A model generated the notes under the pieces. The model searched no databases. It was not told where the DNA came from and worked only from the letters and a program-made list of their open reading frames with translations. Both the position numbers and the translations under genes were made by a program. A DNA stretch of 49,674 nucleotides from a virus. Lineage: Duplodnaviria > Caudoviricetes. Below are positions 13,765 to 49,674 of this stretch, piece by piece; position 1 is the stretch's first letter; every line of letters begins with the position of its first letter. The DNA lies in IMG/VR virus record IMGVR_UViG_3300020045_001314, positions 1-49,674 of that record; one strand, given 5' to 3'.

Positions 13765-14100
13765 TGGTTGAGCTTATAACGCTCTTATAAGCTCTTTCTA
13801 AGTTATAAAAGATCTTATATCTTTATAGATAGAGATATAAAAAAGGATAGCTCTATGGCTATCCAAGGGATGGATTATTGAATTTTTTCTCGATTATTGA
13901 ATTAATAACGTGTAAGTAGTTGTTTTTGTTCTCGATTATTGAATTATTGAATTATTGACTACCATAACCTCAAAAAGTGCTGTTTTTACGTTTTTTCGAT
14001 TATCAAAAAGTTCATAATTCAATAATCGATAGTAAAATCAAACACTTACAGCTAAAAAGTTAATAATTGAACCAATAATCTAATAATCGATAGTGTTTTC
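13765..14100. repeat. Putative replication origin: AT-rich region with GATTATTGAATT iterons and palindromes
   Basis: Direct copies at 13873, 13892 and 13934, tandem ATTATTGA to 13958, inverted copies at 14016-14029 and 14073-14090; lies downstream of the primase gene. Confidence 0.7.
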
Positions 14101-14192
14101 AATGACTTACGTGCTTTTTACAAGAACACATGGAGTGCAACCCCAGATAACTAACAATGGTAGCACAACAGGAAGACAATGGTAAAAATAAA

Positions 14193-14208
14193 AGGCCCTT
14201 GCGGGCCT
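14193..14208 (-). terminator. Intrinsic terminator after primase
   Basis: AGGCCC-ttgc-GGGCCT with a minus-strand U tract. Confidence 0.7.
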
Positions 14209-38382: not shown

Positions 38383-39229
38383 ATGAGGCAATCGAGGCGG
38401 GTATTTCGGCGAATACAATTACCAGATCAATGTCTTGTGTTGCTGTGCTTGTGTTTTTAATCTCAGCAAAGAAACCAGCGCCGCCAGCTTGATAAATCGT
38501 GAATCCCTGCTCAGGCGATAATGTTCCTGCAGGCCTACCGCTTTGCCCGGCAACCGTGCCAGCGCCAGAGCGGATTATTATGCGCTTATCTGTTCCAAGC
38601 GTGGTTGGCGCTGTCGAGTTGTATTGGATTGTTGATAGCGCCGTTTGCTGTGGTGCTCTGTCACTCTGGTTGTATGCTGTAAGCGAGTCAGTTGGAGTCC
38701 ACCCACTTGATCCGGTGTATAGGCGGTAAGTTGCACCAGCAACGTCAGGAGACAGAGTTCTGCTGATAATCGCAATCTCTCTATCGGCTGGCGGAGTGAA
38801 CTTTAACCACCTAACTCCGCCAGCGGTGACGCCAGCAAACGTAAACGCTAGCCTGTACTCGATGCCAAGCAATGCAAACGACTCTGCGTTTGTTATCGCT
38901 GCGGTCTGCAACTTCGGCTGCGTCAGGTTAGGATACGACCTAAGCGCCGACTCTAGCGCAAAATTTTCAGCGTACTGCACAGAAACCCTGCTTCCAGATA
39001 CGCAAGCCATCCATACGGTAGTATTTGGCGGAATAACCAAGTCTCCGCCAATATCTAGCCAGTTACCGTCTTTTTCATCGATAGTTGGTGATGATGCAGA
39101 AGCAGCCCATCGGATTTGCTCAATGCCAAGATTGAACACGCGCAGCGGCTTGTTTACATCCAGGCCACTATTCGCCGTGATGTTAGTCCATTGCGCGCCT
39201 ACTGGTATTGCAGCTATGAAATCAGGCAT
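38381..39229 (-). CDS. Probable virion accessory protein
   Basis: Thr/Gly/Ala-rich; in the structural module; coupled to the SGNH gene. Confidence 0.65.
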   Translation of the reverse strand: MPDFIAAIPVGAQWTNITANSGLDVNKPLRVFNLGIEQIRWAASASSPTIDEKDGNWLDIGGDLVIPPNTTVWMACVSGSRVSVQYAENFALESALRSYPNLTQPKLQTAAITNAESFALLGIEYRLAFTFAGVTAGGVRWLKFTPPADREIAIISRTLSPDVAGATYRLYTGSSGWTPTDSLTAYNQSDRAPQQTALSTIQYNSTAPTTLGTDKRIIIRSGAGTVAGQSGRPAGTLSPEQGFTIYQAGGAGFFAEIKNTSTATQDIDLVIVFAEIPASIAS

Positions 39230-40601
39230 ATCTAATTCCAAGTGATTTTACGATTACCGTTCCGGTTGATGCCGCTGAACCAACGCCGAATGCGCGAACT
39301 AGCAAGCTTACCGCTGTAGCGCCTTCTGGCACGGTGATGGGCTGAGTCATCCACACCCCGCTGATGGCATCAGCTGGCATCAAGCTGTTATTGTCATACC
39401 GCTCACCATCCCACACATAAACACTTGTGGTATCGGCTAGTGTCACTTGAATGCCTAGTTGCAAGGATGTGATATTGCTAGACGATGCATTCATTTCCAT
39501 ATCTGCGACAACGTAAACGCTACGACCTGCGGTGATTGACGATACAAGTCCGGTAACTCGCATCAAGTCAAGAGTTGGGTTTGTGCCGCTTGCCGCCGTT
39601 CCGCCAATGACGACTTGTTGATAGCCTTCTGCTGTCTTGCTATAGACGCGAGTGATGCCACCAACTGTTGATCCTGCTGATGCATTATAGCTAGTTGCGA
39701 GCGAGCCAGAGCCGCCGGTGCCAAGCGTGCCGCCTGCTGTTCCGTCAAGCATAGGATTGGCATTCAGCCATAAATCCGGCATGGAGTTGCTAGTTGGCAG
39801 CACAGATGGAGCGGCTGGGTAGTTTGCGATTATTTGGTCAGCTAATGCCTTGTAGCCAATAAGATATGCGCACTTAGTTGCCGGATGCAGCCCGTCAATA
39901 GTGATACCTGGCAGCACATCGCCCGTGGTGCTTGTCTTGACTGCGATATTAGGCCATGAGTCAACTGGATAAACTTGGCGCTCACCGCGCAAACTCAATA
40001 TCCAGTCATGCACTTCAATGTGCGCTTTCAACTGCGCAGTATTCAGGCGGTAGTTGGTAAATGTCGTGTCACCGCGTGGCAATTCAGCATCTAAGTACAC
40101 GTCCTTGCCAGCAGCAACAAGGCGATCGACAATGTATCGCAGATTGATGATCGTTTGCGCCGATGACAGCGTTGCGCGGTCATTGGTGCCAGCCAGCACA
40201 TAGAAGCTGTCAGGATAGCTAGCGCATGCCTGTTCGAGCAAGTTATCTATGATGTCTTGCGTGTTGTATCCGCCAACTGAAAAGTTGTAGGATGAATGAA
40301 ACGCCAGGCGCTGGCGTGACTTCATACATGCCCAGTGTAATGGCCCGATGTTTTCGCTGATACCATTCTTGCCTGAGTTGTTTGACCTGCTGTCACCCAG
40401 CATGCCAATGATTGAGTTTTTTACCGTCTTTGCTTCCTGTAGGGACTTCCCGCTGGTTGTTTCATACCGCACGGCATTCCGGTAATCAACGCCGTCCCAA
40501 ATCATATAGACCACGGACGGGTCTGGTTTAACTGGAATATCTTTTGCGCTGCGGACGTACTTCACGCCGCTTGTATCGAATGGAACAAAACCTGTAGGCA
40601 T
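39222..40601 (-). CDS. SGNH/GDSL hydrolase with C-terminal carbohydrate-binding-like domain
   Basis: Complete SGNH blocks: LGDSR, NFSVGG, AGTND, DGLHP. Confidence 0.85.
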   Translation of the reverse strand: MPTGFVPFDTSGVKYVRSAKDIPVKPDPSVVYMIWDGVDYRNAVRYETTSGKSLQEAKTVKNSIIGMLGDSRSNNSGKNGISENIGPLHWACMKSRQRLAFHSSYNFSVGGYNTQDIIDNLLEQACASYPDSFYVLAGTNDRATLSSAQTIINLRYIVDRLVAAGKDVYLDAELPRGDTTFTNYRLNTAQLKAHIEVHDWILSLRGERQVYPVDSWPNIAVKTSTTGDVLPGITIDGLHPATKCAYLIGYKALADQIIANYPAAPSVLPTSNSMPDLWLNANPMLDGTAGGTLGTGGSGSLATSYNASAGSTVGGITRVYSKTAEGYQQVVIGGTAASGTNPTLDLMRVTGLVSSITAGRSVYVVADMEMNASSSNITSLQLGIQVTLADTTSVYVWDGERYDNNSLMPADAISGVWMTQPITVPEGATAVSLLVRAFGVGSAASTGTVIVKSLGIRYA

Positions 40602-40632
40602 GATATGCGTCTCGCAGTTGATTACTATCTGC

Positions 40633-40672
40633 GCATTATATCACATAAGAAAAAGCCCTCACTCGGAGGGCT
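40633..40672 (-). promoter_or_regulatory. Terminator (40654-40672) followed by extended -10 GTGATATAATGC (40633-40644)
   Basis: AGCCCTC/GAGGGCT stem with U tract; perfect TGnTATAAT. Confidence 0.65.
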
Positions 40673-40678
40673 GTTGTT

Positions 40679-40978
40679 TCATTCTGCCGTTTTCGCTGGG
40701 CGGCCGCGCTTTGGCTTTAGTTGCTCAGTAGTTCCGCGCTCATTTACGGGCATGTAATGCGAAGGAATTGGACCGCCGTGTAGATTTTCGGTGTGCGGCG
40801 CGTCATCGTCTTCATCACTTTCTTCGTTATCGTCACCTGGCGTTGCCACTTCAAGCCCTGCCTCTTCAATCAACTCAAACGAACCAGCCGGAAACACATC
40901 ACCAAGTTCGCCATCTGTCTCGATAACATCACCGGATTTCATGCCGCCAAAGTCTTCATTCAACTTGTACTTTTTCAT
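40679..40978 (-). CDS. Small acidic head-associated protein with C-terminal KRGRP motif
   Basis: GGAG RBS; directly follows the major capsid gene. Confidence 0.7.
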   Translation of the reverse strand: MKKYKLNEDFGGMKSGDVIETDGELGDVFPAGSFELIEEAGLEVATPGDDNEESDEDDDAPHTENLHGGPIPSHYMPVNERGTTEQLKPKRGRPAKTAE

Positions 40979-40996
40979 TTTTCACTCCAAAAAATT

Positions 40997-41017
40997 AGGG
41001 CTCCATTGCGGAGCCCT
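40997..41017 (-). terminator. Terminator after major capsid gene
   Basis: AGGGCTCC/GGAGCCCT stem followed by AATTTTTT on the minus strand. Confidence 0.75.
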
Positions 41018-41038
41018 TAAACTATAAGCGATTACGGA

Positions 41039-42151
41039 TTAGGCGACAACAGAGAAGTTGAACACGCCAGCCTTGCCGTTGATGTCTGCGCGAACCTGCA
41101 GACCCATGGCGCCGTAAATCATGAAGTTATAGTTGTCCATCGGGTTTGCGCGCATCATAGGAACAACTGCAACTGAAGCGCCAACCAGGGGGCGCACGAA
41201 GTCTTGGCTGCGCACATAACCGAACATCGCTTGGCCGCCAGACAGCTTGAAGGTTGTCTTGATAGCGCCGATGCGGCCAAAGGTCAGCAAGTAGCTTTCC
41301 AGTGTGCCTTCCTTGAAGCCAGCAGACCCGCTATACGGGCGAGACAGCACGCGGCGAATTTCAGGGGAAATCCACAGCACGTCAATTCGGTCTACGAAGT
41401 TGTTGTCCAGCGCTGCGGCAACGTACTGATTGAAGAACGCGATGATCTCATCGTTGGTAGCGGTGGTAAGGTTGATGTTTGCGCCAGCCAAACCGCCAAC
41501 GGTGCCAGAGCCCATGTTGACTTGGTAGGTGTTGCGGTGGTTGCGGATACCTTGACCAACCGCGCCATCAACCTTGATCTTGGTGTCACCGGTCAGCATG
41601 TAGTCGGCGATGTTAGACAGAACCCACTTCATTTTCAGCGCTTGCGCATCAGTGGCAAAGTCGATTGCCTCGGTAAGACCGCCAACAGCCTTGCGGTAGT
41701 TAACGCCATAGCCAGCGGTGAAGGTCGGGATTGGGTCAGAGTCGTACACGTTTTCGTTGTGATCGAAATCGGTGGGAGTCTTGAAATCCATGCTGCGGTT
41801 AACGCCAGTGGAAACATCAGTGCCCTTGGCGTATGCGTTGGAAGTCTTGCCGATTGACAATGGCTTGGCCAGACCCATCAGGTCGGTAAGGAACTCGCGA
41901 CCCTGGTCGTTGTCCTTAACCTGAATGCTGGTGCGGTCGGTTTCGCGCCAGAAGTCCAGCGCAGGCTTGCCAGCGTTAGCCTCCAAACCAGAGCGTTGCT
42001 CAGTGGTCAGCTGGTTGCCATACATATCGACAAACATCTGATTCTGACGGGTGAAAACTTTACGCTGAGACATCATCTCGGCGTGCTGTGATTGGCTTGC
42101 TCGCACATTGGCGCTGTTGCCAGTCAGGATTTTGTCATCAAAAACTAACAT
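41039..42151 (-). CDS. Major capsid protein
   Basis: 370 aa; strong codon bias (long antisense ORF shadow); protease-decoration-capsid-terminator order; NYNFMIYGAMGLQVRAD C-terminus. Confidence 0.88.
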   Translation of the reverse strand: MLVFDDKILTGNSANVRASQSQHAEMMSQRKVFTRQNQMFVDMYGNQLTTEQRSGLEANAGKPALDFWRETDRTSIQVKDNDQGREFLTDLMGLAKPLSIGKTSNAYAKGTDVSTGVNRSMDFKTPTDFDHNENVYDSDPIPTFTAGYGVNYRKAVGGLTEAIDFATDAQALKMKWVLSNIADYMLTGDTKIKVDGAVGQGIRNHRNTYQVNMGSGTVGGLAGANINLTTATNDEIIAFFNQYVAAALDNNFVDRIDVLWISPEIRRVLSRPYSGSAGFKEGTLESYLLTFGRIGAIKTTFKLSGGQAMFGYVRSQDFVRPLVGASVAVVPMMRANPMDNYNFMIYGAMGLQVRADINGKAGVFNFSVVA

Positions 42152-42161
42152 TCTTAGCCCC

Positions 42162-42593
42162 TTATGCGAAACGAACTTTCACCAGTTGAGCGGCGGCGCC
42201 CACGGTGATAATTTCTTGAGAGTAGGCGATTACCTCATCGGTGCCCAACACGGCAACGCGCAAAGTGCCATCACCTGCTGAGGTCAGCGGAGTATCTTCT
42301 ACCAGCACAGCCAAAGCCTTAACCAGCACCGCCAACATGCGCCCAGTCTCTGCAATCTCGCCAACAATGGTTGATGCAGCAGCGATAGTGTCGGCCGATT
42401 GCTGGCCTTCGCACTCGTTGGTGTTTACGATGTAGATTGCGTCTTGCTTCTTGCCGTCAGTTGAATGCTTGACGAAGGTCTGACCGGACATCTTTACGAC
42501 GTTACCGGCCAGCAGCGTAATAGCGCCGGAAAGTTTGGTTTTGGTGATGCTCAACCCATCAAGGTTGATTCGAGCGAAACGACCGATAGCCAT
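42162..42593 (-). CDS. Head decoration protein
   Basis: 143 aa between protease and capsid genes; LTSAGDGTL motif. Confidence 0.75.
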   Translation of the reverse strand: MAIGRFARINLDGLSITKTKLSGAITLLAGNVVKMSGQTFVKHSTDGKKQDAIYIVNTNECEGQQSADTIAAASTIVGEIAETGRMLAVLVKALAVLVEDTPLTSAGDGTLRVAVLGTDEVIAYSQEIITVGAAAQLVKVRFA

Positions 42594-42596
42594 GTC

Positions 42597-43814
42597 TTAG
42601 TCCTCGATCTTGTAGTTGGCGAAAATGTCAGATTCTTGGTCAGATGAACGACCAGGCAGCAGACCAGCGGCAGGCAACTTTTGATTGGCGACCATTTCTT
42701 GCAGCGCAACCACGCCACATTCCTTGGCGGCAGCTTCGGTCATCAACTTTGCGTTTACTACCTGTTCAACCAGCTTTGCCTTTTCGGCATCGGCTTGTGC
42801 TTTGGCGTTTGCTGCCAAACCTGCGGCGATACCGTCAGCGACAGCCTTTGCGATTGCATCAGAATTTACCGCGAGAGGCGCAGTGGCATCCTGAATCATT
42901 TTTAACACTTCTTCTTTTTCCACAATATTACCCTCGCGGTCGTGGTTTTGGATGGATTCTTGTTCCGGTGTTGATTTTACCATATTTTTTATCGCGTCGA
43001 GCAAAGCCGCTAATCGACCACCTTTCAGTTCAAGGATAACTTTTCCTTCTACGCCTTCTTCTTCACCGTTTGGCATATTGACGTACATAACCTCGACTTC
43101 TTCCGGTGCTCCGTCAGCATTAACGAAGATACCAACGCCTTGTGATGGAGTGGCTGCCCCTTCTTCATTCAGCAAAATGGCATCATGGTTGAATCCGTCA
43201 ATTTCAGCTCGGTACTTGTAGTCCTGACCAGACTCATTAGTGCCAAGCTCAGGAATGCGCTTGAGGTATACGCCAGTTGAGGTGTGAATTGGCTGCTTGT
43301 GCTTGATAGCTTCTGCTAAGTTCTTTCCGCGCTTGGTGTTTTGCAGCTGCTCAGTTGGGATGTACTTATCAACCAGCCATGACCCGTCTTCCGCCTGCCC
43401 TCGCAGCTTGTTGAACGCTCCGCCTAGTCCGTGCTTTGCCTGACTCATCATGTCATAGGCGTCTGCAAACTTTCCATTTACAACTGGATGGCCAAGCGTG
43501 ACAGGTGAGCCGTCCAGCGTCTTGATGGTCTTGGCGACATCATCGGTAGGATACAGAATGCCATTCATGACGATATTCGGCGGCAGCGTCTTACTTGGCA
43601 GCACGGTAAAATCAACGCCTTCAATTGTCTCGGTGCGGATTTCTGAGTTGTTGACGAGTGAGGATATGTTTACCAGCAGTTGATTGTTGGCGTACTTCGC
43701 TTTGCGGATTTCGTCTTCGCGGTCTTTGGCTGCTTGCTCGCTGTCAAACTCGCCAAGCTTCTTGCTGCCATCTTTTGAGTAGAGGCACCATTTCTTGCCT
43801 TCTTGCTTAATCAT
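42597..43814 (-). CDS. Prohead protease/scaffold (DUF2213-like)
   Basis: VMNGILY, PVTLGHP, IHTSTG, NHDAILLNEEGAA; Ala-rich scaffold-like C-terminus. Confidence 0.85.
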   Translation of the reverse strand: MIKQEGKKWCLYSKDGSKKLGEFDSEQAAKDREDEIRKAKYANNQLLVNISSLVNNSEIRTETIEGVDFTVLPSKTLPPNIVMNGILYPTDDVAKTIKTLDGSPVTLGHPVVNGKFADAYDMMSQAKHGLGGAFNKLRGQAEDGSWLVDKYIPTEQLQNTKRGKNLAEAIKHKQPIHTSTGVYLKRIPELGTNESGQDYKYRAEIDGFNHDAILLNEEGAATPSQGVGIFVNADGAPEEVEVMYVNMPNGEEEGVEGKVILELKGGRLAALLDAIKNMVKSTPEQESIQNHDREGNIVEKEEVLKMIQDATAPLAVNSDAIAKAVADGIAAGLAANAKAQADAEKAKLVEQVVNAKLMTEAAAKECGVVALQEMVANQKLPAAGLLPGRSSDQESDIFANYKIED

Positions 43815-43841
43815 GTTTGCGCCCTGTTGGATACAATGACG

Positions 43842-43853
43842 CGATTATATCAT
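43842..43853 (-). promoter_or_regulatory. Late-type extended -10 ATGATATAATCG
   Basis: Perfect TGnTATAAT 28 bp upstream of the protease ATG. Confidence 0.65.
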
Positions 43854-43906
43854 GGGTAACGGCTATGGCGGGTAAAGTGAGGTTTAACTGGTGGAGCGGG
43901 TAAAAC

Positions 43907-43944
43907 AAAAAACCACCTAGCCGCAATGGATTGCGGAAGGCGGC
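43907..43944 (-). terminator. Intrinsic terminator closing the candidate ncRNA
   Basis: GCCGCCU-u-CCGCAAUCCAUUGCGG-cu-AGGUGGU followed by UUUUU on the minus strand. Confidence 0.65.
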
Positions 43945-44489
43945 CGAATTAGGTTGCCCCGTTGCAAGTGTGACAAGACATACGATTTACTGCATGAAAT
44001 GTGAGTGAATACATCCGAGGGCTTTAGCTATGCGCGGTAGCCTTCTTTAATATACATCGCCAGCATCCATCTGGCGTCCTATTTCTAGGTCTTGAGCGTT
44101 GCGCGATAACACTCAGGATTATCCTATAATCGTTATCCGCATACCATAATGCGGCGACGGAGTCCGAGGTTATCAAACACAACTGTGGATTGCACTGGTG
44201 CCCATACTCGCCGACATCGTAGAGCTTGCAGCTCGAATCTTGTGATGGACAAATCGGTGCCTTACTTCCAATGCAATCCCAGTTATGCCTTGTCTCTCCA
44301 AGTGTCGGGCTCTTTCGCCTTGTCTGTGCAATCACCAACCAAAGGAGGAGGCTGGCTTGCACTGCAAGCGGATATTGCTATTCTCAACGTCAATCTAGAC
44401 CCTATGAGCTAGATTGCTTTCACTTCCTATTGCTAGGCGATGATGGCGTCCGACTTGCCCCGCTTCATCCTTTATGCCCCTAAGCAATG
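43907..44489 (-). ncRNA. Candidate large (~580 nt) structured non-coding RNA
   Basis: Own promoter and terminator, no credible ORF, four GNRA hairpins, a long helix with minus-strand-specific G-U pairs. Confidence 0.65.
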
Positions 44490-44495
44490 AATCAA

Positions 44496-44524
44496 ACTCT
44501 ATACGCACTTTTACCGCATGTCAA
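44496..44524 (-). promoter_or_regulatory. Sigma70-like promoter TTGACA-N17-TAGAGT
   Basis: Consensus -35 overlapping the HD gene stop codon; points into the ORF-free region. Confidence 0.7.
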
Positions 44525-45066
44525 CAGCCATAATACGAATTAACAATATTTTTGCATTCAGCCATCAATTTTTCGTCTCCACCAACAAGCACACCAAGCA
44601 AAAGTTTCTTTTCTTCCATGTAAATTCCAGCGAACTTCCCGCCATGCTCAATGATTGATTTCGAGTTGCTTATCAAGTCCGCCAGCTTTACTGTTTTTGC
44701 TCTGTTGCTCGCTTTCGCCGTATGATATCTGTCGATTGCCTTTCTTGTTGCCCTGTTTCCGTCAGTCAAAACTGAAACATCTGACAACTCAGCAACCATC
44801 TGAGCAATGCCGAAACCAAGCCCGGCGTCAATCAATTTCCGCTTGGTTACTCCACAATCCTCGATAACATCATGCAGGAATGCGGCGCATATTGTTTCGC
44901 AATCATCGGTAACCGAGGCGACAATCTGCGCCACTTCTACAGGATGATTGATGTACGGCTCGCCAGTATATTTTCGCTTCTGCCCCTCATGCGCCTTCTC
45001 CGCAAAAGAGCAAGCAAAATCAATAAGCGCTTGGCTTCTGTCGTGCTTTATGCCGTGATTAATCAT
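44521..45066 (-). CDS. Stand-alone RelA/SpoT-type HD hydrolase (small alarmone hydrolase / Mesh1-like)
   Basis: AHEGQKRKYTGEPYINHP, AAFLHDVIED, VKLADLISN; start at the ATGA overlap. Confidence 0.88.
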   Translation of the reverse strand: MINHGIKHDRSQALIDFACSFAEKAHEGQKRKYTGEPYINHPVEVAQIVASVTDDCETICAAFLHDVIEDCGVTKRKLIDAGLGFGIAQMVAELSDVSVLTDGNRATRKAIDRYHTAKASNRAKTVKLADLISNSKSIIEHGGKFAGIYMEEKKLLLGVLVGGDEKLMAECKNIVNSYYGC

Positions 45067-45320
45067 GACAAACTTTCCTCCAGCTCCCTGCGCAACATCT
45101 CCAAGCATCCAACCGGATAAGCCTGGCGAGTAAGTCCGATAAATATCGAGCGCACTCTGTCAAATGTTATTGATGGCAACTGGCGAGCGACTGCTTTGCG
45201 GATTGCACGATTAGGCGCATCACGGTGCATCTCCGCTGCCAGCTCGACACTTACAAGCACGCGCAGGTATTCTAGAGCCTCGGCGTCTGTGCTGGTTATT
45301 TGGGAGATTTTGGTGGTCAC
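45063..45320 (-). CDS. Hypothetical protein
   Basis: GTGA/ATGA overlap coupling. Confidence 0.6.
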   Translation of the reverse strand: MTTKISQITSTDAEALEYLRVLVSVELAAEMHRDAPNRAIRKAVARQLPSITFDRVRSIFIGLTRQAYPVGCLEMLRRELEESLS

Positions 45321-45447
45321 ATCATCCACCCATCAATTCCGCCACATAAAATAATCAGCGCCAGCAGCAGTGCAGCTTTGATGCCTTGACGATTCCGTCG
45401 CATCCACATTTCAGCTTTGCCGTGTGGTTTTACGTTTATGTAGTCGA

Positions 45448-45630
45448 TCATGGTTGTTTCTCCATGAATATTACCTCTTGCTTGTCAGTTCTTTCTTGAG
45501 CGAAACATGCCACACCGGGGCACAGAGTGTCATCGAATGCGCAACCATCGCATGTTGGACCAAAATCATTAACAGCAGATTGCACTGCTATGTATATTTT
45601 TCCATAATAGCAAAACTCATTCTCATTCAT
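45448..45630 (-). CDS. 60-aa Cys-rich protein, paralogue of 6998-7177
   Basis: MNENEFCYYGKIYIA...CDGCAF...C...C...VIFMEKQP. Confidence 0.7.
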   Translation of the reverse strand: MNENEFCYYGKIYIAVQSAVNDFGPTCDGCAFDDTLCPGVACFAQERTDKQEVIFMEKQP

Positions 45631-45877
45631 TTGCATCTCTCCAATAACTTCCGCTCATTGAGCTTATAAGCTGCCACTTGCAATACTAAAGCGTCAAGCT
45701 CTTTAGATAGAAATTCAGCTCGTTTTTCTGCTGCTATCGCACGGGTTAGCGCGTCAGAGGCATGCTGCCTAGCTAACTGAATGTCACCGCTGTGTATTGC
45801 AGCGGACACCATCACCACCTCTTGAAGATTGGCGCACTTGTTGTATTTGCGCTTGTATTGTCTGCTGAGTAAATCCA

Positions 45878-46252
45878 TTATGCTTTCTTCCAGTAATGAC
45901 CAGCATAGCTTGACTGCTCACCGCGAAGGCATTTGCGGATTGATCCTTGGCAGAATCCTCCGCGCAGGTCGGCGTCTGTTAATGACTCAAACTTATGCTC
46001 TGTGCTAGTTGCGATGTCTTTAGCAACAACTGGCGTCCGGTGATAAAACGCCTTCTTTATCTCAGTTACGCGAATGCGCACTCGATGACCATCCATGCAC
46101 TCTGTTGACTCGTATCTATCTGCTTTGCGAATGGTTCGCACTGTGTATTTTGCCTCTTCTGCTGAGATTCCAAAATGCTCGGCAATCTCCGCGCCTGTAG
46201 CGCCATTTGGTCGGCGGCAAAACTCCGCGACTTGCTGTGTTAGTGATTTCAT
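45878..46252 (-). CDS. DNA-binding protein: N-terminal HTH plus NUMOD1-like domain
   Basis: ATGAEIAEHFGIS; FESLTDA...GSIRKCLRG....AGHYWK. Confidence 0.7.
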   Translation of the reverse strand: MKSLTQQVAEFCRRPNGATGAEIAEHFGISAEEAKYTVRTIRKADRYESTECMDGHRVRIRVTEIKKAFYHRTPVVAKDIATSTEHKFESLTDADLRGGFCQGSIRKCLRGEQSSYAGHYWKKA

Positions 46253-46282
46253 TTGCTATCCTCTCTTGTTGTTGATGTGCTG

Positions 46283-46333
46283 ACTATAGCCGCACGAAAA
46301 AAGACTTGCAATAGTTTTGTGATGTAGTAGATT
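46283..46333. promoter_or_regulatory. Divergent promoters sharing a palindromic TTGCAA -35 (46306-46311)
   Basis: Minus TTGCAA-N17-TATAGT; plus TTGCAA-N16-TAGATT. Confidence 0.55.
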
Positions 46334-46370
46334 TACTGGGTGCCGCATGGTGTGGCGAAGGAGCGATGAT

Positions 46371-46592
46371 ATGAGCGAATTGGTTAAGGTTAGATTGCTG
46401 AATAATGGCGGATTTGGCACCAAAAAAGGAGCCAAGTTTCCAGTTGTTGTAAATGGCGAGAAGAAGTGCGGCGGAAAAGGCGTGGTTATCTTACACAAGG
46501 AAATAAAGCATCTTATTTCAGCCGGAGGAGTTGATGATGATTATGGTTGGAATTTCTTTATCGGGTTAGAATGCGAGATTATCAATGACTAA
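46371..46592 (+). CDS. Hypothetical protein (VKVRLLNNGG)
   Basis: AAGGAG RBS before ATG 46371. Confidence 0.7.
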   Translation: MSELVKVRLLNNGGFGTKKGAKFPVVVNGEKKCGGKGVVILHKEIKHLISAGGVDDDYGWNFFIGLECEIIND

Positions 46593-46733
46593 AAAACAAT
46601 GCGATTACTGCGGCGAGTGGTTCGAATACGACGAAACAAAGCGGAGAGGGCCTGAGCGCCGTTACTGTAACAAAGACGGGAAACACAATTGCGCCGTGAA
46701 GGCGTGTAGAGCGAAGAAGAAGGAGCAAGTGAA

Positions 46734-47264
46734 ATGACTAGACAGGAAAAACTGGAATGGCTGGCGAGGAATGTTCATGAGTGGCCGAGTGGTATTGACA
46801 CTGTCGCGCCAAATCTTGGTGAAACCGGAAAGTCAGACAAGTTTACAAGACTGGAATGGCTATCCATGCGCGAGAAGCTGCAGAATAAGCCAGAACTTGA
46901 CAACTCATGGCATGAACGCGGTGAGTTTCCAGGTATCGGCTCAACCGTTACGGTTGACAACAGTTACGACACGCACGACATCGGCGGAGACCCAGCCGAC
47001 TGCATTGGTGCAGAATGCGTTGTTATGGCAACATTCGAGCGAGACAACGGAAATAGCAAAGAAAAAATTGTTTGCGTAATGGAGCCTCGAGGAGGCTGCT
47101 ACTGCTTCAAGCTTCACATGATCCGCCCACTCCGCACCGAGCGAGAAAAGGCGATTGATGAGATGAAGCAATATTGCGCGTATCCAGGAAGCTGGTTTAA
47201 CACATACAAGCCATTTGCCGAGGCGCTGTATGATGCCGGACTTATCAAGGAGCAAGCCAAATGA
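46734..47264 (+). CDS. Hypothetical protein
   Basis: AAGGAG RBS; WHERGEFP..G and IRPLRTEREKAI motifs common in phage proteins. Confidence 0.7.
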   Translation: MTRQEKLEWLARNVHEWPSGIDTVAPNLGETGKSDKFTRLEWLSMREKLQNKPELDNSWHERGEFPGIGSTVTVDNSYDTHDIGGDPADCIGAECVVMATFERDNGNSKEKIVCVMEPRGGCYCFKLHMIRPLRTEREKAIDEMKQYCAYPGSWFNTYKPFAEALYDAGLIKEQAK

Positions 47265-47689
47265 TCCAACTAAAAACAAAGCGCCTTACACCAACCGCCA
47301 AGCTGCCAACGTATGCCCATGATGGAGATGCGTGTTTTGACATTTACGCAGATGAAGTGCAACCGAAAGCACATGGAGCTGTGCGCATCTCTACTGGTCT
47401 GTCATTCGACATTCCAGAAGGATACGCGCTGATGGTATACAGCAGAAGCGGTCACGGATTCAATCATCATGTACGCCTGTCTAATTGCGTTGGTGTGATT
47501 GACTCAGGATACAAAGGCGAGTTGATAGTTAGCTTGCGATTTGATTCCTCGCAAACATACCATCCGCAGCGCGGAGACCGAATCGCCCAAGCAATGCTGA
47601 TTCCAGTGCCTAAAGTTGAGATTGTAGAAGTGGATGATATTGGCGACAGCAAGCGTGGTGAAGGCGGATTTGGGAGCTCTGGCGTATGA
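47261..47689 (+). CDS. dut: Trimeric dUTPase
   Basis: ACFDI, SRSG, GVIDSGYKGE, RIAQ, RGEGGFGSSG. Confidence 0.96.
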   Translation: MIQLKTKRLTPTAKLPTYAHDGDACFDIYADEVQPKAHGAVRISTGLSFDIPEGYALMVYSRSGHGFNHHVRLSNCVGVIDSGYKGELIVSLRFDSSQTYHPQRGDRIAQAMLIPVPKVEIVEVDDIGDSKRGEGGFGSSGV

Positions 47690-48873
47690 CCACAAAAAAC
47701 TGGCAAACCGAAATCACCGGCGAGCTGTTATCGTTCGCAAACGAATCACAGGCGGCCAAGCTGGTCGCCATTCGTGAATGCGGAACTATGAAGCTTGCAG
47801 CGTCAAAACTTGGCGTTAGCGAGCGCATCATTGGGCGCACGTTAAAGCATGTTAGGGACAATGCGGCGCGGCAAGGCTACTCACCATCTCACGACATGCA
47901 CGTAACCGTTCCAGATGGCTTCCACCTTCGCGGCACGTCAACGCTGTATAAGGACGGCCATCAGGCTTTGCAATGGGTTAAAACCAGTATTGACCATGAG
48001 CGCCAGGCTGAGATGATGCGCGAAATGATCGAGGCTATGGCGGAGGATTTGCCGCGCCTGCCAGTGTCATCATTTCACGGCACCGTGCATTCTGACCTGC
48101 TGGCTGTTTACCCAATCGGTGATGCGCATATCGGGATGCTGGCATGGGGTGAAGAATCAGGCGATGACTGGGATTTGAAGATTGCAGAGGAAACATTGTG
48201 CGGCGCATTCCGGCGCTGTGTTGATGCAGCTCCACACTGTGAGAATGCGCTAATCGTCAACCTTGGCGACTGGTATCACACGGAGACGATGGACGGGGTT
48301 ACAGCTCGAAGTGGGCACCACCTGGATACTGATGGTCGCTATGCAAAGATGGTGTGGGTTGGCGTGAAAATTATCCGCTCAATGATTGATTCGGCATTGA
48401 TGCGTCACGCATCAGTGCGAGTTATCAACGTGCAAGGTAATCACGACCAAACTGCGGCGCTGCTTCTTGCTGTTGGGCTGGCAAACACTTATGAAAACGA
48501 ACCTCGAGTATCCATCGATAGAAGCCCGTCATTCTTCAACTACTTTGAGTTTGGGCGCGTGCTAATTGGCGCACACCACGGACACACCTGCAAGGCTGAT
48601 AAGTTAGGCGGCGTCATGGCCGCTGATATGCCGGAAGCATGGGGTCGCACAAAGCATCGCTACTGGCTGACTGGTCACATCCATCACGACAGCATGAAGG
48701 AGTATCCAGGTTGCACGGTTGAATCGTTTTGCACGCTAGCAGCTAAAGACGCTTATGCATCAGCAGGCGGATGGCGGTCACGGCGCAACACCAAGTGTAT
48801 CGTCATGCACCGCGATCACGGCGAGATTGAGCGGCACACGATTGATATTTCGCAACTCGGAGCAATCAAATGA
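47686..48873 (+). CDS. Calcineurin-like metallophosphoesterase with N-terminal HTH
   Basis: GDAHIG, NLGD, GNHD, HHGH, TGHIHH; AASKLGVSERII HTH. Confidence 0.88.
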   Translation: MTTKNWQTEITGELLSFANESQAAKLVAIRECGTMKLAASKLGVSERIIGRTLKHVRDNAARQGYSPSHDMHVTVPDGFHLRGTSTLYKDGHQALQWVKTSIDHERQAEMMREMIEAMAEDLPRLPVSSFHGTVHSDLLAVYPIGDAHIGMLAWGEESGDDWDLKIAEETLCGAFRRCVDAAPHCENALIVNLGDWYHTETMDGVTARSGHHLDTDGRYAKMVWVGVKIIRSMIDSALMRHASVRVINVQGNHDQTAALLLAVGLANTYENEPRVSIDRSPSFFNYFEFGRVLIGAHHGHTCKADKLGGVMAADMPEAWGRTKHRYWLTGHIHHDSMKEYPGCTVESFCTLAAKDAYASAGGWRSRRNTKCIVMHRDHGEIERHTIDISQLGAIK

Positions 48874-49352
48874 AACTACTGGTAATCGGCAGCGCTAGAC
48901 ACGGAAAGGATACGGTTTGCGAAATCATGCGCGACAAGTACGGATTGAGCTTTGCGTCTAGCTCGGAATTTGTCGCGGAGCGAGCGGTATATCCGCACAT
49001 CATGGACAAGTATGGATATACAAGCCATGCAGAGGCATATGCAGACAGGGTTAACCATCGCGAAGAGTGGCGCGATCTGATTGGCGCGTACAACTCAGAG
49101 CCGTCAACTCTTGCGCGTGAGCTGCTTGAGCATCACGACATTTATTGCGGCATGCGATCAATGCGCGAATTCGATGCAGCTCGCCATATGTTTGATGCTG
49201 TCATTTATGTTGACGCATCAGAGCGCGTAAAAATTCACGATCCAACCCTTGACATACCATCACCTGTTGCTGATTATGTAATCGACAACAACGGAACACT
49301 TGAGCAACTTGAAATCAATATTGATGAGGTAATGCAATGTCTAAAAATGTAG
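48870..49352 (+). CDS. Deoxynucleoside monophosphate kinase-like P-loop protein
   Basis: IGSARHGKDT; GMRSMREF; ADYVIDNNGTLEQL. Confidence 0.8.
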   Translation: MKLLVIGSARHGKDTVCEIMRDKYGLSFASSSEFVAERAVYPHIMDKYGYTSHAEAYADRVNHREEWRDLIGAYNSEPSTLARELLEHHDIYCGMRSMREFDAARHMFDAVIYVDASERVKIHDPTLDIPSPVADYVIDNNGTLEQLEINIDEVMQCLKM

Positions 49353-49674
49353 TGGTTTTTGATTTGGATGGAACCCTGTCAGATGGGCGTCACAGATTGC
49401 ACCTTCTACCAAAGAAAGATGATGCTGGACGAACAGAGGCATGGGATGCGTTTAATCTGGCGGCTGGTGATGATGATGTTTTCGCTGATAACATGGAGTT
49501 GATGAACGAGTTAGCGTCAAGCTGTGTATATCGTATCGTGATATTGACAGGAAGGTGTGATGTTGCGATAGATGTAACGAAGGAGTGGCTTCGCACTGCT
49601 GGCGCCTACTATGACGAGCTAATAATGCGCAAATCAGGAGACCATCGGCAAGACATCGAATTCAAAGAGGAGGA
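49337..49674 (+). CDS. HAD-family polynucleotide 3'-phosphatase, 5' part (wraps through the contig end to 257)
   Basis: MSKNVVVFDLDGTLSDGRHRLHLLP...ILTGR; missing from the ORF track because it runs off the end. Confidence 0.88.
   Translation, partial: MSKNVVVFDLDGTLSDGRHRLHLLPKKDDAGRTEAWDAFNLAAGDDDVFADNMELMNELASSCVYRIVILTGRCDVAIDVTKEWLRTAGAYYDELIMRKSGDHRQDIEFKEE
49554..49674. repeat. Terminal direct repeat (right copy)
   Basis: Identical to 1-121. Confidence 0.95.

Follow-up and report, generated by a model that had tools for sequence, protein, structure and literature searches.

A mosaic noncoding unit built around a putative RNase III stem, upstream of the capsid operon of a phage related to Aeromonas phages

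The locus and its noncoding unit

The window, i.e. the whole stretch of 49,674 nt that was analysed, is a complete virus record (49.7 kb) with terminal repeats. Its capsid protein showed 86% identity to those of the Aeromonas phages phiA005 and 4_L372X, and less than 45% to those of the other records listed. On the minus strand, a noncoding unit is flanked by a stand-alone HD hydrolase gene of the RelA/SpoT type (44521..45066; Pfam HD_4, E 3e-19, with PDB matches to Rel/SpoT and MESH1) and a putative prohead protease/scaffold gene (42597..43814), which is the first of the capsid operon and has its own -10-like site. The latter and a DUF7740 gene (45063..45329, minus strand) are the downstream and upstream anchors of a slot which, in sister phages, holds noncoding arrays and then tRNAs. 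Neither tRNAs (ARAGORN, Rfam) nor a tmRNA were detected in the window. The HD hydrolase gene had no tblastn match in the slot of the fetched relatives; it seems to have been inserted into this variable slot, where it could perhaps counter alarmone-making toxins. At the start of the protease gene, 156 nt of the window (43674-43829) correspond to only 31 nt in relatives from three runs. Past the capsid gene and behind a terminator, a GDSL-like lipase gene (39222-40601, minus strand) is inserted. The remaining gaps that were read contain either small ORFs or an AT-rich tract that looks origin-like; this tract (13765-14207) has short repeats, lies upstream of small genes and adjoins the primase gene.

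The original prediction had placed a large structured RNA with its own promoter and terminator between the two flanking genes, and all 18 sequence stretches on which it drew are present with the letters and coordinates given. The sigma-70-type promoter-like site (44496..44524, minus strand), with a predicted start near 44489, overlaps the stop codon of the HD gene and matches at 10 of 12 positions, but such sites are about as frequent as expected in this part of the genome (11 versus 9.5 expected in 40000-49674). The region 44409-44526, including this site, recurs in a contig from run X6. At the other end (43905..43945, minus strand), folding recovered an intrinsic-terminator-like hairpin before a U run with pair probabilities of 0.92-0.94, although it was not among the 16 sites reported by the terminator scanner.

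When folding was compared with shuffled sequences on both strands, the z score was -3.79 on the minus strand and -2.95 on the plus strand. Since z went as low as -3.9 among 62 control windows (300 nt each) from the same genome and was only -0.9 in the 5′ half of the RNA (its middle scored -4.4), folding energy alone is supportive but not exceptional. Four GNRA hairpins with at least 3 bp were present on the minus strand, as predicted, and none on the plus strand (1.1 expected, P 0.03), but one of them lacks support from homologues. The 112-aa ORF, proposed as a possible coding alternative, belongs to no Pfam or PHROG family and is unconserved: of 13 variants, 2 create stop codons and another 8 alter the amino acid. 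Compensatory changes among relatives were found within the modules and within the stem family described below. Because of the promoter-like site, the terminator hairpin, the folding z of -3.8, the compensatory changes and the ORF being broken in relatives, the existence of a stand-alone, structured noncoding unit on the minus strand is supported at the sequence level.

Modules of the unit and their recurrence

Judged from sequence comparison, the unit is a mosaic, in which the 5′ domain, the central cargo and the 3′ domain each recur beside different partners in other phage DNA. The related pieces came from contigs of four public runs belonging to four studies, contigs which say nothing on expression or habitat; the shares of the matching runs were all 0.05-0.06, and no RNA run was among those listed. 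Contigs of the four runs covered the unit piecemeal, with the full set of modules in none of them, and among the sister arrays blocks are common, lost or reordered. A contig that looked chimeric (L006) was left out. No full-length homologue was found in phages (blastn, 18 chance-level records), in E. coli genomes, in plasmids (one chance match) or in 103 Aeromonadaceae genomes, where the only match was to a stem arm. Thus, a whole-length fold with stems covarying in homologues was not found; the modules assort independently.

The 5′ structured module (44291..44466, minus strand) is about 175 nt long, has several stems and a GNRA loop, and belongs to no known family. Parts of it were found in runs X3 and X6, while its search pattern had no match in viral or metagenome contigs. 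Matches of Aeromonas genomes to 44461-44434 were dropped as protein-like sequence. In run X4, the 5′ part (44270-44466) stands with another cargo and other upstream DNA and carries 20 changes. Thirteen of these were listed: four make up two compensatory pairs (U-A to C-G and C-G to U-A), another three leave pairs intact, two fall at unpaired positions, one of them converting GCAA to GAAA, and the last four disrupt predicted pairs. Relatives bear out the predicted CCUA-GNRA-UAGG hairpin at 44426-44437, whose loop changes from GCAA to GAAA in two runs, and of the hairpin drawn at 44391-44416 they support the lower stem. The hairpin proposed at 44355-44369, on the other hand, is disrupted by a change in two runs, and covariation favours a competing helix (44362-44350/44340-44326) with two compensatory pairs.

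Downstream of the central stem, a long irregular hairpin (44098..44183, minus strand) is predicted from folding to close on the foot strand of the stem once this is freed by cutting. No homologue of it was found, the contigs of the four runs leaving 44092-44173 uncovered. It is followed by two short hairpins (44058..44089, minus strand), CCUA-GAAA-UAGG and 44058-44076, with pair probabilities of 0.96-0.97; the segment 44040-44082 recurs in run X3. The 3′ module (43946..44050, minus strand) consists of a hairpin followed by a conserved helix whose tip varies, and was identified in six homologues in the same slot. In these sister phages it is always the final module ahead of tRNAs or a terminator. 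A profile built without the window ranked the window copy top in its genome with a weak E value (0.089), and the module was absent from the 103 Aeromonadaceae genomes and from 99 other loci. The GGG-GCAA-CCU hairpin that had been drawn here is not supported, as all six homologues miss that loop.

The central stem, its cargo and RNase III

The long helix predicted between 44268-44290 and 44175-44198 is upheld by relatives. In the family alignment, it corresponds to a putative processing stem with a 5′ arm at 44268..44287 and a 3′ arm at 44178..44198 with a bulged A at 44186, both on the minus strand; RNase III is predicted to cut at 44280/44279 and at 44185/44184. The subtype of the window's stem is common to 14 of 87 arm pairs. 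Between the arms lies a swappable cargo of 69 nt (44199..44267, minus strand) with the helix 44251-44245/44205-44199. The same cargo recurs in one contig of run X1 inside another stem variant, where all seven pairs of this helix are retained despite three double changes and one change from G-U to A-U. Conversely, the window-type stem holds other cargos in runs X3 (93 nt) and X6 (34 nt). A pseudoknot had been suggested between 44303-44308 and 44211-44216, but the first segment and its partner cargo assort independently. It is possible that a modelled helix, 44257-44253/44215-44211, crosses the cargo helix instead; both its strands are in the cargo and therefore this pseudoknot, if real, lies inside the cargo. 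Across cargos, no excess of pseudoknots was found (5 of 69, some of which were read on the wrong strand).

Pattern scans for the stem returned 13 and 14 viral stretches, and the pattern was also present in 3 Aeromonas genomes and 7 metagenome stretches; 7 of 14 matches to the 3′-arm pattern, which had no partner arm, were dropped as chance. A looser pattern yielded 120 viral stretches out of an estimated 350. A generic stem finder gave 344 matches when both strands were counted, spread over 144 of 173 sequences, versus 9 in shuffled sequence. Orientation and filtering of 138 stem intervals left 129, of which 115 were distinct, a few perhaps still misoriented. These 115 modules of the fetched loci hold 58 unrelated clusters of cargos of 35-169 nt, and a single identical arm pair holds up to 14 unrelated cargos. 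Some cargo families recur, with compensatory changes, in several stem subtypes and host groups. As a class, however, cargos fold barely better than shuffles (mean z -0.5). One stem locus matches 88 GenBank records of phages of Escherichia, Klebsiella, Salmonella and others, and 14 of the 20 records shown are either unannotated or lack a feature at the matching position. Four Rfam scans (14, 15, 20 and 20 loci) found no model for the stem.

In 16 hand-picked sequences, 98.8% of the cells of the arm alignment were paired and double changes occurred at 8 of 16 pairs, a result reached by none of 500 shuffles. Among 69 arm pairs, 16.5 of 19 pairs were Watson-Crick, against 13.0 +/- 0.2 with shuffled partners. 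The sense strand pairs more than the opposite strand in 60 cases, equally in 21 and less in 8, as expected if the stem acts as RNA. Letters of the upper arm were part of the search patterns, and its conservation is partly circular; the second stems beside matches and the Qin copy described below are free of this circularity.

Among the loci fetched, one cargo (L065 385-430, plus strand) contains a complete hammerhead ribozyme core with three paired stems. Aeromonas prophages also have leaders of 0.5-1 kb beside the repressor that consist of shuffled RNA modules (L011, L014, L017, L028, L032, L033, L035 and L036), including C4-like scaffolds with long variable inserts missed by the Rfam C4 model. 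A C4-like start follows most enterobacterial stems, partly by search design.

A copy of the stem is located upstream of dicF in the E. coli K-12 prophage Qin (locus L164, 874-957), where the conserved foot and upper arm flank a variable insert of 44 nt. In vivo RNase III cuts are listed there at 1649182 and 1649251 in the supplement of Altuvia 2018 (PMC6212723), and these map to L164 883 and 952; each arm is cut once, and the two cuts are staggered by 2 nt. According to a preprint (bioRxiv 10.1101/2023.04.14.536235), the 190-nt form of DicF requires RNase III, and the RNase III-dependent end is at transcript position 813/814. This end fits L164 952 if the transcript starts at 139, behind a promoter-like site read from the sequence. 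Qin has another RNase III double cut (L164 1155 and 1285), which flanks a STnc100-like module past dicF. A second copy of the stem was not established in E. coli K-12, where the pattern had four matches versus two in the control.

In the window, the helix above the predicted cut has 12 bp (44279-44268/44198-44187) with a pair probability of 1.0, in agreement with the E. coli RNase III rule of at least 11 bp. The distal box has the preferred U-A and then U-G (44270/44196 and 44271/44195), with the spacing taken from the Qin cut sites rather than from the figure of the paper. The proximal box, however, reads U-A, A-U, G-C, G-C and has one of the four optima, which for the E. coli enzyme are given as G-C, A-U/U-A, A-U and A-U/U-A (PMC1540722); the enzyme of the host differs from that of E. 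coli. The same source reports that G-C beside the cut suppresses cleavage in vitro, and this weak proximal box is the main weakness of the cut prediction in the window. Taking both sides together, we consider it likely that the transcript of the window is cut by RNase III. Given the match of the central helix to an RNase III double-cut site already documented, a discrete product of 580 nt would probably be a precursor only.

Possible roles and relation to known systems

We lean towards a reading in which exchanged RNA modules are carried on one precursor that RNase III cuts on both arms of the stem, freeing RNAs that are perhaps decoys. A single minus-strand precursor of about 585 nt would be transcribed, and cutting by host RNase III at the two sites predicted from the Qin copy would leave three pieces, roughly 210, 95 and 280 nt long. 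The 95-nt cargo piece would be protected by its own 12-bp closing stem, while recombination at the conserved arms would allow cargos to be swapped. The freed pieces might act by shape, binding or saturating host toxins controlled by RNA and nucleases that cut tRNAs.

The decoy action against host defence is proposed tentatively, because an orphan abiF-like RNA is present in two sister arrays and tRNA-like arms are present in six cargo groups. The abiF antitoxin-like RNA ends the array in two sister contigs (L040 964-1000 and L165 754-790, both on the minus strand; 36.8 bits, E 3e-5, and 32 bits, E 0.018), and no Abi_2 gene was found in the complete sister phage G004. Motifs of this kind are reported to neutralise the AbiF toxin in trans (bioRxiv 10.1101/2025.04.15.648962), and pseudo-ToxI of phage TE is a phage RNA mimic that neutralises defence (PMC3475682). 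T-arms were found in 6 of the 58 cargo clusters (0.03 expected). The T-arm cargos not called as tRNA by ARAGORN or by annotation are at L008 3178-3273 and L009 810-960 and in L079, L053, L083 and L103. Both the cargo and the 5′ module of the window keep structure while the sequence changes. No known antitoxin or abiF motif was found among the modules of the window itself, and DicF and C4 (PMC5069750, PMC12197685), like IsrK, are described as base-pairing RNAs; that the characterised RNAs of such arrays act by base pairing counts against decoys.

The main rival to decoys is an antisense action of the DicF type, in which the processing is the same but the freed RNAs regulate host or phage mRNAs as DicF, IsrK and C4 do. 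DicF sits in the same kind of array and behind the same stem, C4, IsrK, IsrJ and STnc100 were matched within the fetched loci, and prophage sRNAs are reported to bind Hfq and mRNAs (PMC8550237). We nevertheless regard this as rather unlikely for the window, since its cargo and 5′ module change sequence yet keep structure, the rest of the genome contains no significant match to the RNA (the best being 15 nt, E 0.41), and no Rfam antisense family, C4 and c4-a1b1 included, was detected in the window. Alternatively, the cargos might be neutral filler, and the modules might serve for the most part to punctuate or adjust transcription and the maturation of tRNAs where the late region starts. The constant place of the 3′ module directly ahead of tRNAs or a terminator and the many cargos that fold no better than shuffles fit this; but the phage has no tRNA and yet retains the unit, compensatory changes occur in cargo families that recur across stem subtypes and host groups, and one would hardly expect filler to contain abiF motifs or a hammerhead core that is intact, which makes this explanation improbable.

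The original prediction favoured a divergent ROOL or GOLLD, or another single large ornate RNA, and this is not supported: the Rfam search gave nothing at gathering score and one chance match up to E 10, and the parts recur with different neighbours. Pistol, twister and HDV-type ribozymes were also considered and dropped, with no Rfam match and, judged by eye, a helix order that misfits their consensus. One could still picture an RNA that resembles GOLLD or ROOL and stays uncut at about 580 nt, with exchangeable domains and a stem that binds RNase III weakly or not at all. This would suit the promoter-like and terminator-like ends, the GNRA loops, the poor proximal box and a slot that is common with tRNAs, as described for ROOL and GOLLD (PMC12286853). 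It is, however, very improbable, given that there is no Rfam match, that no relative was found with its domains in this set or this order, and that the stem family is itself a mapped RNase III site.

With the processed, exchangeable modules that we prefer, an apparent orphan giant RNA becomes a testable system with a mapped processing site and predicted product ends. The 58 cargo families, found in phages of Aeromonas, Escherichia, Salmonella and Klebsiella, have no Rfam models. Should the cargos be decoys, the arrays amount to a collection of RNA counter-defences, one that points to the host systems targeted; should they be antisense RNAs, they make up a large pool of regulators resembling DicF. 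In both cases, the stem offers a compact socket of natural origin for the production of small stable RNAs in bacteria. More speculatively still than the decoy action, gammaproteobacterial phages may have a general RNA chassis, in which a socket for host RNase III carries dozens of swapped structured RNAs as hypervariable anti-immunity decoy arrays. Such a chassis, if true, would be the RNA counterpart of anti-defence gene clusters with antitoxin mimics and tRNA-arm mimics. Conserved sequence around dicF may already have been described by Faubladier and Bouche in 1994. No description of the stem family with swappable cargos was found in a literature search that left out most subscription papers and bioRxiv supplements as well as the supplementary catalogues of candidate RNAs (Weinberg 2010, 2017; phage RNA screens). 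What appears new is the link to the mapped double cut, the Aeromonas subtype, the two modules without a known family and the orphan abiF RNA.

Among known systems, the unit resembles ROOL and GOLLD in size, phage origin, GNRA loops and a slot of the tRNA-island type (with tRNAs in relatives and none in the window), but it differs from them in having no model match, no conserved whole-length fold, swapped parts and a likely cut. Small phage-borne RNAs that mimic host or defence RNAs, such as pseudo-ToxI, RNA anti-CRISPRs and the abiF RNA, neutralise defence by shape (PMC3475682; PMC10651486), and the abiF-like RNA of the two sister arrays recalls them. No mimic was identified in the window, however, and each cargo is present as a single copy that a host nuclease would release, unlike repeats cut by a toxin or Cas6. 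C4, IsrK, IsrJ and STnc100 match modules in the same kind of array, none of them in the window; PasD is a further prophage sRNA of this group. The closest likeness is to the RNase III site of the Qin dicBF operon, which has the same foot and upper arm, a 44-nt insert, a noncoding array and cuts on both arms in vivo. The window's stem differs from it in the middle (Aeromonas subtype, with the bulged A on the 3′ arm) and has an unrelated cargo, and the unit stands alone without DicF rather than in a repressor-controlled operon. The unit would belong with the RNase III-processed small-RNA polycistrons of phages, of which dicBF is the one studied case.
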